DNA of 64,000 nt from a virus (lineage: Duplodnaviria > Heunggongvirae > Uroviricota > Caudoviricetes), in the IMG/VR virus record IMGVR_UViG_2654588054_000003; one strand, 5' to 3'. The position numbers were made by a program. Shown piece by piece: positions 30,001-33,000 of the stretch (positions within the stretch are counted from its first letter, which is position 1; every line of letters starts with the position of its first letter).

Positions 30001-33000
30001 CTTGAATTAACAGAGCCAGCATGATCGCTGGCTTTTTCATATCTGAATTTCACCGCGCACCGCAGCGCATGATAACCACCGAACCTGCCCCTTTGGAATG
30101 AGCCTTTGAGGATACCAGTTAGTGCTGGCGAGCCTCGGTGGGCTGGTTTCCTATGCGGCAAAGGTTCATTTCAAAGAACAGGTATACGACATGAAATCAT
30201 TAACCCTCTTCAATCAGCCAATCCGTGTCGCTGAAGATGGCATGATCTGCCTCACTGATATGTGGAAAGCCAGTGGTAAAAGTGAATCTGAATCTCCATA
30301 CCACTACCTGAGAAACAAGCAGACCAAAGAGTTCTTAGCCGAGCTGGAGAAAAACCACGAATCTGTGGTTTTTACTGAGCGCGGTGTACACGGTGGAACA
30401 TATGGCGGGAAGTTTGTTGCTTATGATTATGCAGCATGGCTAAACCCCGGATTTAAATATGCAGCCTATAAAGTCCTGGATGACTACTTCACCGGAGAAC
30501 TTCAGCATCGCAACAGCTTAAGTGCGCAGCTCAATATGAAGTGCCATGAGTTTGATCAGAAAAAAGATATGGCGAGCTTCTGTGGACAAGGGCTCGCGGC
30601 ATGGCGCTATACGAAGCCAGTGTTGGTCGCTGAGATTAACTCCTTGGCTAACCAGCTGCAGATTACGATCCCCGGGCTTCCGGGATGAGTGATCGTGTCA
30701 TTGAATGCGCCTCCAGAGCGGGGCGCGACTTCTCAGAGTTCATGAAAGGCGAGAAGGGCATGATGGAAGCATTGGCCTCGGTGGATGAGTTTGGCGAGCA
30801 GCTGCGCCTCAACGGCTGTGTCAATCATCACTTTGTCAGCTACATGATGCGGAACTCGATCATGCAGGCATTCATGGACATGGCAAAAGCCGAGAGGAAA
30901 GAAGAGCGCCGGCGTAAGCGAGCGGAAGCAAAAGCGAAGTAGTTATTACAAAAGCCATTCCCTACAGAGTGGCTTTGATAATGGCTTATACCCTACACGG
31001 GATAACTTAACTGATATCCCTTTTAACGGATAAAGGCATTTCAGCCTGACATAGCCATGCGCCGCATCGTCGCCGTATTCCCGCATTAACAGAGACCGCA
31101 GCCACCTTATCTGCGTGAGTGTGCGGGGATAATCAAAAACGATGCACACCGGGTTTTCTCATTTTTCACGAGATGGGAGCGATTTCCCGCGAAGCCGCCT
31201 GTCCGGTGCGGTGGTGGAAGAAACCGGATAAAACAACCGCATTGTGCAAATATCGATCAAATATGGTGCTGCTGTGTGAAATCTGAAAAATCACAGCGGT
31301 CATTATGCATCAGTTTTTAACACAGGACGTCAGAACGTGACATGGCAAAGCTGGACTGGAAAAAGCTGGAGCAGGCATTCCGACGCGAACATGCCGAAAC
31401 GGGAATAACATTACTGGACTGGTGCCGGAAGAAAAAGATTAATTACAACACCGCCAGAACCCGTATAAAAATGGGCAAAATCGATCATGAAATTGATCAT
31501 AAAACCGATCATGAAATCGATCATGACATCTCAGATGAAGAACCCTGCAATGACGCGGGTTCCGGCGATGAAAAATGCGCAAAAAACTCTGAAAAAAACT
31601 GCGCAAATTCGGCAGAAACGAAACGGATTCGTGGTTCCCGACTTTTACCACCTTCAAACGCTTTTTCTCAGCGAAACACCCACGCTGTAAGACACCGTGG
31701 ATACGCGAAGTATCTTGAGGCAGATAACCTCATGGATGATGCGTCCGATATGGTGCTGTTCGATGAACTGGTGTTCACCCGGGCCCGCGCACTTTCAGTA
31801 ACTAAGGCACTTAAAGGGATGTTCGCCGACCTGGAAGAGGCAACTGACGTGGAAACCCGTGTTGCTCTTTACGACAAAATACTCAAAGCTGAACAGGCCC
31901 TTGACCGGAATATTGCCCGTATCGAGTCAATTGAACGCTCATTGCTGACGCTGGACGTCCTGGCTGAGACAGCACCAAAACTTCGTGCTGACCGGGAAAG
32001 AATCAACGCCGCCAGAGATAAACTCAGAGCTGAAACCGATATTCTGACCAGCCAGCGTCGGGGCGTTGTTACGCCTGTCAGTGACATCGTGTCATCGCTG
32101 CATGAAATGAGTAATTCGGGGAGACTGGATGACATTCCGGAAGAATGAACCGCGATGTGATGAGCCGTCAGAAATGACCGAGGCTGAACAACGTCTGTTC
32201 ATTATGACAAAACTGAGCAATCCCTGGTGGCGGCTCAATCATCTCTACAAAATACAGAACGAAAAAGGTGAACTGGTCACCTTCAGAATGCGACCGGCGC
32301 AGCGCCAGTTGTTCCGGAGCATGCACAATAAAAATATTATCCTGAAAGCACGCCAGCTGGGTTTTTCCACGGCCATTGATATTTATCTTCTCGACCAGGC
32401 ATTATTCATTCCGCATCTCAAATGCGGGATCGTCGCTCAGGATAAACAGGCAGCCAGTGAAATTTTCCGCACAAAAATTGCTGTACCGTTTGATCATCTC
32501 CCTGACTGGCTGAGAGCCTCATTCACCATCGTTGAACGTCGTAGCGGTGCCAGCGGTGGCTATATCCTGTTTGGTCACGGCTCGAGTATTCAGGTGGCAA
32601 CCTCATTTCGCTCAGGTACGGTGCAGCGCCTGCATATCTCAGAGCACGGCAAAATTTGCGCGAAATATCCGGCTAAGGCGAAAGAGCTGCGAACCGGTAC
32701 GCTTAATGCCGTTTCTGATGAATGCATTATTTTTGATGAATCCACGGCTGAAGGCGTGGGTGGTGATTTTTACGAGATGAGTAACCGTGCACAGGAGAGC
32801 ACTGCATCAGGCTTATTGCTGACGGCACAGGATTATAAATTCCATTTTTACGCCTGGTGGCAGGATCCTAAATACAGCGCCAGAGTGCCGGAAAGCGGGC
32901 TGAAGCTGTCACGGGAAAAAATGACGTATTTTTCTGCGGTTGAGAAGGCAATGAACATCACGCTTACTGATGAACAGAAGCAGTGGTACATCAATAAGGA

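Follow-up and report, generated by a model that had tools for sequence, protein, structure and literature searches.

Within 64,000 nucleotides of the tailed-phage record IMGVR_UViG_2654588054_000003 (hereafter the window), the gene for the small terminase subunit, terS, contains a tandem array of four GATC-centred hexamers (31478..31530, + strand), which is proposed to be the element recognised by TerS in the pac site of headful packaging in 933W-like phages, a variant of the arrangement in phage P1. We put the probability of this reading at about 0.65. It draws on the array itself, on the conservation of such arrays at the DNA level, on the co-variation of the hexamer with helix 3 of TerS, on the homology between TerS and the PacA protein of P1, and on the published headful behaviour of 933W.

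A 12-bp tandem array inside terS

The four GATC sites start at 31483, 31495, 31507 and 31519, at a constant step of 12 bp, and each is part of a YGATCAT copy (31482-31488, 31494-31500, 31506-31512 and 31518-31524). Tandem Repeats Finder describes 31478-31530 as 4.4 copies of a 12-bp repeat with the consensus AAATCGATCATG, and the direct origin of the cluster is tandem duplication of this 12-bp unit. GATC is present in all four hexamers, of which one is an exact TGATCA and three are CGATCA, position 1 being relaxed. The array corresponds to nucleotides (nt) 141-186 of terS and encodes IDHE-IDHK-TDHE-IDHD at amino acids (aa) 47-62 of TerS, a fourfold (I/T)DHx pattern. The initial annotation had reported a cluster of four GATC sites in the 5' part of the small-terminase gene and was right in both respects, apart from an off-by-one start of its string (31482 rather than 31481); the open reading frame (ORF) matches PHROG 370 'terminase small subunit' with an E-value of 4e-125.

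Across the window GATC is scarce, with 148 sites observed against 262 ± 15 expected from dinucleotide-preserving shuffles, all 100 of which gave higher counts. When the 148 sites were placed at random, at least four GATC within 40 bp were obtained in 1.6% of placements, a figure that leaves the exact periodicity out of account. Neither YGATCAT (19 copies versus 22 expected) nor TGCGCAAA (7 versus 4.8 expected), a motif discussed below, is enriched window-wide; the special feature is the local clustering. The nearest GATC downstream of the array is at 32428, approximately 900 bp away. Far from terS, two further GATC sites with a spacing of 12 bp were seen at 43590 and 43602.

The array begins where the predicted N-terminal fold of TerS ends

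The terS gene (31342..32148, + strand) encodes a protein of 268 aa, assigned from PHROG 370, from the AlphaFold2 (AF2) model and from annotation in related phages. The region 31100-32300 is 99.3-99.8% identical to the 933W-like short-tailed Shiga toxin (Stx) phages Ss-VASD, P13374, TL-2011c, PA2 and PA8, in which this ORF is annotated as terS. AF2 predicts helices at residues 6-20, 24-31 and 35-41 (predicted local distance difference test score, pLDDT, ~89), and a three-helix helix-turn-helix (HTH) domain was accordingly assigned to aa 6-41 (31357..31464, + strand) from this model and from homology to the N-terminus of PacA. Its third helix, YNTARTR at aa 35-41 (31444..31464, + strand), is a candidate recognition helix, as suggested by the model and by its association with the hexamer type. 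Residues 46-116 (31477..31689, + strand) are predicted to form a disordered linker (pLDDT <50), which is variable in both length and sequence in the alignment, and a long helical hairpin is confidently predicted at aa 127-238. The start of the array thus coincides with the end of the predicted folded N-terminal domain, and the linker-coding stretch of terS combines low constraint on the protein with the presence of DNA elements.

One short motif is clustered at the same place in every TerS subfamily

A protein search provided 379 matches, down to ~38% identity, from Escherichia, Salmonella, Citrobacter, Serratia, Yersinia, Dickeya, Pectobacterium, Brenneria, Xenorhabdus and Aeromonas, and 110 loci from viral and genome collections made up the DNA set. 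The homologues share a common layout, in which a conserved N-terminal part of ~46 residues is followed by a variable low-complexity stretch and then by a conserved C-terminal part. In every subfamily a cluster of one short motif was found at nt 120-240 of the gene, just past the N-terminal HTH. TGCGCA is the motif in 49 distinct sequences, with 5-8 copies per sequence (mean 6.2; three in Xenorhabdus) at 92-fold the density of the flanks. TTCGCA occurs in five distinct sequences from Pectobacterium, Brenneria and Symbiopectobacterium (5 copies per sequence, about 160-fold flank density), and YGATCA in 17 distinct sequences of the 933W and Salmonella types (3-5 copies, mean 4.06, 27-fold flank density).

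Two further TerS lineages with an unrelated N-terminal domain (L117:2501-2860 and L115:2501-2860; MNQSEEE... and MDMEALK...) bear repeats of their own at the equivalent place. In one of them these are three copies of GTACGAAA, in two reading frames, together with two copies of GTACCTCAAAAA; in the other they are TCCGTC plus the inverted GACGGA. Judged from these sequences, the pattern suggests that the N-terminal domain and its cognate sites may be swapped as whole modules.

A distant TerS homologue (23% identity, E-value 3e-18) was also observed on the minus strand of IMGVR_UViG_2740892473_000002, with five YGATCA spaced 12-13 bp apart at nt 302-351 of the gene and isolated sites at nt 134 and nt 234. 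Because its array lies deeper in the gene, the wider TerS family has no single fixed array position.

The hexamer type follows helix 3

Comparison of the helix-3 sequence with the hexamer type revealed a perfect association over nine helix variants and 71 distinct sequences, which share a phylogeny and represent some 4-5 independent events rather than 71. Helices of the form Y(N/Q/G/D/S/A)(S/T)ARR(Y/H) go with TGCGCA, YSSAKRY with TTCGCA and YNTART(R/Q) with YGATCA. One case is the Salmonella GATC-type, of which the N-terminal domain is identical at 39 of 46 positions to that of a TGCGCA-type sister and differs from it in helix 3 by G36N, R40T and Y41Q. TGCGCA and TGATCA themselves differ solely in the central dinucleotide, and the pair of proteins looks, at the sequence level, like a natural specificity swap.

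Conservation of the DNA rather than the peptide

Whether such arrays are maintained as DNA or as protein can be judged in the TGCGCA class, in which the hexamer is used in all three codon phases (16/55/233) and encodes peptides as different as K-L-R-K (AAACTGCGCAAA), S-A-Q (AGTGCGCAA), C-A-K (TGCGCAAAA) and V-R-K (GTGCGCAAA). Synonymous positions are constrained as well. Of 221 A-Q dipeptides encoded in the arrays, 202 (91%) have GCG as the Ala codon and 201 (91%) have a T immediately before it, compared to 58 (31%) and 35 (19%) of 186 in control coding DNA from the same loci.

For the GATC class, it was predicted from the protein alone that the Salmonella variants with SDQK, SDHK and NDHE would carry GATCA hexamers, and the DNA agreed. 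The terS genes of this type, ~60% identical overall to that of the window and with the helix YNTARTQI, contain three or five YGATCA at the same offsets from the ATG as in the window (141/153/165/177/189 nt). Their arrays encode S-D-Q-K/N-D-H-E instead of I-D-H-E, and the Asp codon is invariably GAT with a pyrimidine before it. This comparative analysis supports the view that the array is a cis-acting DNA element and not a protein repeat.

Relationship to P1 pac and to other packaging systems

The pac site of P1 comprises 161 bp with seven TGATCA/G hexamers (PMC10028697). The annotation of the P1 genome (NC_005856) puts the pac cut at nt 275-285 of pacA. Four hexamers (HEX4) occupy pacA nt 195-232, just past an HTH homologous to that of TerS and 45-80 bp before the cut, and a second arm of three hexamers is found at nt 325-350, with a site for integration host factor (IHF) between the arms. 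The GATC positions in pacA are 195/202/214/229 and 325/337/348, some of which are 12 bp apart. The site proposed in the window, like that of P1, falls in the 5' portion of the gene for the small subunit and is built from GATC-centred hexamers (TGATCA/G in P1, YGATCA in the window); headful packaging, generalized transduction and an adenine methylase of its own are further features common to P1 and the group to which the window phage belongs.

By profile and sequence comparison, the N-terminal HTH of TerS is homologous to the N-terminus of PacA (WDDHKKNFARL...). BLASTP gave an E-value of 0.011 for the two N-terminal regions, hhalign gave 5.9e-5 for the family alignment against PacA and a probability of 93% with an E-value of 3.4e-7 over 40 columns for a domain-only profile, and the reciprocal PHROG matches of TerS and PacA were 3e-5 and 1.9e-4. 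Past the first ~60 residues TerS is unrelated to PacA (397 aa). No significant BLASTP alignment was obtained between the large terminase subunit, TerL, and P1 PacB, which share only a match to the generic PHROG 2.

Viral contigs were also scanned for GATCA repeated four times with a period of 12 bp. Most of the loci were unrelated tandem repeats, including some from giant viruses, and the HTH was located upstream in only 10 of 120. The same scan returned full-length PacA homologues of 425-453 aa on contigs of ~92 kb that represent P1-like elements (L134, L213 and L183). L134 and L213 are 27% identical to PacA (E-value 4e-30), and their residues 2-70 align with residues 1-61 of the window TerS at an E-value of 8e-10. 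The arrays in all three consist of 5-6 TGATCA at an exact 12-bp period and start 150-170 nt into the gene. They resemble the window array in this period, in codon phase (xx-Asp-His/Gln) and in their place after the same HTH, and are unlike it in belonging to full-length proteins of PacA type and in having hexamers that are all TGATCA; more GATC sites follow ~150-200 bp downstream, possibly as a second arm. As far as sequence can tell, these proteins bridge the TerS and PacA families, and the array design of the window occurs inside the PacA family.

Two candidates for a second arm were considered in the window. A pair of TGCGCAAA motifs (31576-31583 and 31600-31607, + strand), containing the same hexamer as the majority of TerS relatives, lies 50-80 bp downstream of the array; it is kept in E. 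coli relatives, is absent in the Salmonella GATC-type, and may be left over from an older specificity or serve as auxiliary sites. In addition, a lone CGATCAA (31254-31260, with GATC at 31255) was noticed as the closest GATC upstream of the array, in the intergenic region 87 nt before terS begins; it was found in 11 of 17 GATC-type sequences, though not in L033 or in the Salmonella loci. Both candidates are missing from the Salmonella GATC-type and were therefore rejected as core parts of the site.

Other packaging systems offer looser parallels. P22 and Sf6 are, like the window phage, short-tailed headful phages with a P22-type portal, and their pac sites lie inside terS, as is proposed for the window; however, pac of P22 consists of one asymmetric stretch of ~22 bp without a repeat array, and their TerS families are not related to that of the window. 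The R-sites of lambda cosB, read by gpNu1, and pacL and pacR of SPP1 and SF6, read by G1P, are short repeats by the cut that an oligomeric small terminase recognises through its HTH, but their protein families and repeat sequences are unrelated to those described here. These sites lie mostly outside or upstream of coding sequence and have no GATC core, and the ends of lambda are cohesive. For SF6, the small terminase forms an HTH ring that engages pac DNA (PMC4737164).

Packaging mode, proposed mechanism and Dam methylation

The virion DNA of 933W is reported to be terminally redundant, and host markers are moved by generalized transduction, over co-transduction distances consistent with a 61-kb headful (PMC3752737); 933W is therefore a pac phage rather than a cos phage. 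No mapped pac site was found in the literature on 933W, Sp5 and other Stx phages. GenBank records were considered as a source of evidence on virion ends, but the starts of the phage records are not at the terS position and were uninformative.

From these data we infer that TerS binds the array and that cleavage takes place near it. In the proposed mechanism, the HTH domains of oligomeric TerS, tethered by the linkers, would bind successive hexamers via helix 3, and this binding would nucleate the terminase on phage DNA that is concatemeric or still integrated. A nearby cut by TerL would then start a headful packaging series. Given that GATC is central in the hexamer, the N6-methyl groups would fall within the contacted sequence, and binding or cutting would therefore be expected to depend on Dam, as in P1. 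PMC10028697, citing Sternberg and Coulby, places P1 pac cleavage under the control of Dam methylation, and by analogy an effect of Dam methylation on binding or cutting is plausible in the GATC class.

The phage-encoded N6-adenine methyltransferase with an NPPY motif that had been reported in the window is indeed present. The ORF at 18960..19487 (+ strand) matches PF05869 with an E-value of 6e-65 (218 bits versus a cut-off of 28.1), contains the motif NNPPY, and is the nin-region counterpart of the VT2-Sakai gene 'dam' between ninB and ninE; its GATC specificity is putative and follows from annotation. It is distinct from the MT-A70 type, DPPW-motif methyltransferase gp5 of related phages, which acts on 16S rRNA (PMC10810198), and identity with that rRNA methyltransferase of Gong et al. 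was ruled out on the basis of family, motif and its place in the nin region. The proposal that the array is tied to the phage's own methylase fared less well. The dam gene is found in 244 phage records, 37 of which are Stx1a-converting, and a terS of the window type occurs in only one of these 37, so dam is not co-inherited with the array; Dam is also supplied by the host. Moreover, the majority of relatives use GATC-free hexamers (TGCGCA and TTCGCA), and Dam control is therefore not the basic function of the arrays but at most an add-on of the GATC sub-lineage.

A broader and more tentative proposal, to which we give somewhat less than even odds, is that packaging specificity is modular throughout the family, with the linker-coding stretch of terS doubling as a pac array of which the hexamer co-evolves with helix 3. 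The Stx lineage and some Salmonella prophages would then have replaced CG by AT as the central dinucleotide, thereby placing packaging initiation under Dam control as in P1, with which they would share a pacA N-terminal module by ancestry.

Weighing the evidence and the alternatives

Several observations weigh against the array being the recognition element of a P1-type pac. P1 pac is bipartite (4+3 hexamers, cut between the arms), unlike the single arm of four regular direct repeats in the window, and no match to the IHF consensus WATCAANNNNTTR with at most one mismatch was found on either strand of 31200-31900, which leaves an IHF-bent pac as in P1 unsupported. A 933W-like phage was assigned to the PhageTerm class 'Mu-like', with host DNA at the read termini and no pac peak (PMC7946995). 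Such ends are compatible with packaging from an unexcised prophage but give no site; they may reflect in situ (lateral) packaging from a prophage pac. Helix 3 of P1 (NTARRYL) is like the TGCGCA class at positions 40-41, and there is therefore no simple recognition code. All hexamers of the GATC class are in one codon phase, as a result of tandem duplication, so that the argument for selection on the DNA of this class rests on comparison across lineages and on analogy to the remaining classes. Between 1 and 7 copies occur among database variants (1, 2, 5 and 7 units exist), indicating either that no fixed number is strictly required or that the rare variants are defective. Finally, TerS binding and DNA ends near the array enter the proposal as predictions from sequence. 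The interpretation in the initial annotation stands in part: the HTH homology, the place of the array, the GATC hexamers and the 12-bp arrays of PacA relatives bear out its analogy to P1 pac, from which the site differs in the single arm, the IHF result and a TerL with no specific similarity to PacB, and a dependence on methylation or on the phage's own methylase is left unsupported.

The same facts can be read in other ways. The array might be a repeat of the protein only, a flexible, acidic and His-rich (IDHx)4 linker, possibly metal-binding, in which GATC is a by-product of Asp-His codons. The four units do lie in one frame and give a regular peptide, the segment falls in the predicted disordered linker, and E. 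coli uses GAT more often than GAC for Asp; we nevertheless consider this unlikely, as in other subfamilies a single hexamer recurs in two or three frames of the equivalent array and synonymous sites are constrained, the Salmonella type alters the peptide and retains YGATCA down to the GAT codon and its preceding pyrimidine, and the hexamer type follows the DNA-binding helix. Still less probable is a Dam/SeqA element independent of the terminase, in which hemimethylated GATC sites at 12-bp spacing would bind SeqA and affect replication timing or late transcription. Clustered GATC sites are a recognition target of SeqA, and host Dam is reportedly needed for stable 933W lysogeny, yet neither the TGCGCA and TTCGCA arrays of sister lineages at the same position nor the co-variation of the hexamer with the TerS helix would be explained. 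A functionless microsatellite produced by slippage has similarly little to recommend it: the variation in copy number is what such neutral change would produce, but 4-5 copies dominate (clusters of 558, 256 and 57 members versus singletons) and are kept in >95% of ~870 clustered sequences, register and hexamer persist in a lineage of only 60% identity, and arrays are present in every TerS subfamily.

A closer relative of the favoured reading is that TerS binds the array in another role, such as autoregulation of terS and terL or as a tether, with packaging starting and cutting elsewhere. The sequence evidence points to a cognate pair of protein and site rather than to cleavage as such, which suits this alternative; against it, the region 31100-32200 is without promoter-like or terminator-like sites, and the same kind of array in P1 belongs to pac, with the cut 45-80 bp away (PMC10028697). 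We regard it as improbable, about on a par with the protein-only explanation, and favour the array as the TerS recognition element of pac.

Neighbouring genes and structural searches

The terS gene is followed by terL (32129..33835, + strand), which encodes a protein of 568 aa matching PHROG 2 and PHROG 24361 'terminase large subunit', and a P22-type portal gene (PF16510) lies downstream of the two. terS and terL are read in different frames and share 20 nt (32129-32148), an overlap suggestive of translational coupling. An antirepressor-like protein with KilA-N and ORF11CD3 domains is encoded at 30122-30688, between the lysis genes and terS, followed by an ORF of 85 aa (30685-30942) that matched no Pfam family.

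TerS and TerL gave no match in a Pfam search, a PDB sequence search with the HTH profile returned nothing meaningful, and Foldseek comparison of the AF2 model of TerS with the PDB retrieved generic helical hairpins and no solved TerS; the body of TerS is therefore without a structural anchor. No promoter or terminator was found on scanning 31100-32200, which leaves a Dam-regulated internal promoter in the terS region, considered as a candidate, unsupported.

Implications

Short-tailed phages of the 933W type carry Shiga toxin genes and are of medical importance. With a pac element defined, it could be predicted in which direction and how far generalized and lateral transduction would proceed from Stx prophages. 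Such an element would also provide a way to ask whether Dam methylation gates virion production. The hexamers of P1 have been recoded to make packaging-dead prophage and packageable plasmid tools (PMC10028697), and packageable plasmids or packaging-dead prophages could be designed here in the same manner. If the modular reading is true, it would supply the unmapped pac of the Stx phages, and residues 36, 40 and 41 of TerS could be used to reprogramme packaging specificity. More generally, the co-variation of helix 3 and hexamer in many enterobacterial, Aeromonas and Pectobacterium prophages constitutes a natural specificity-swap series for the reading of DNA by small terminases.

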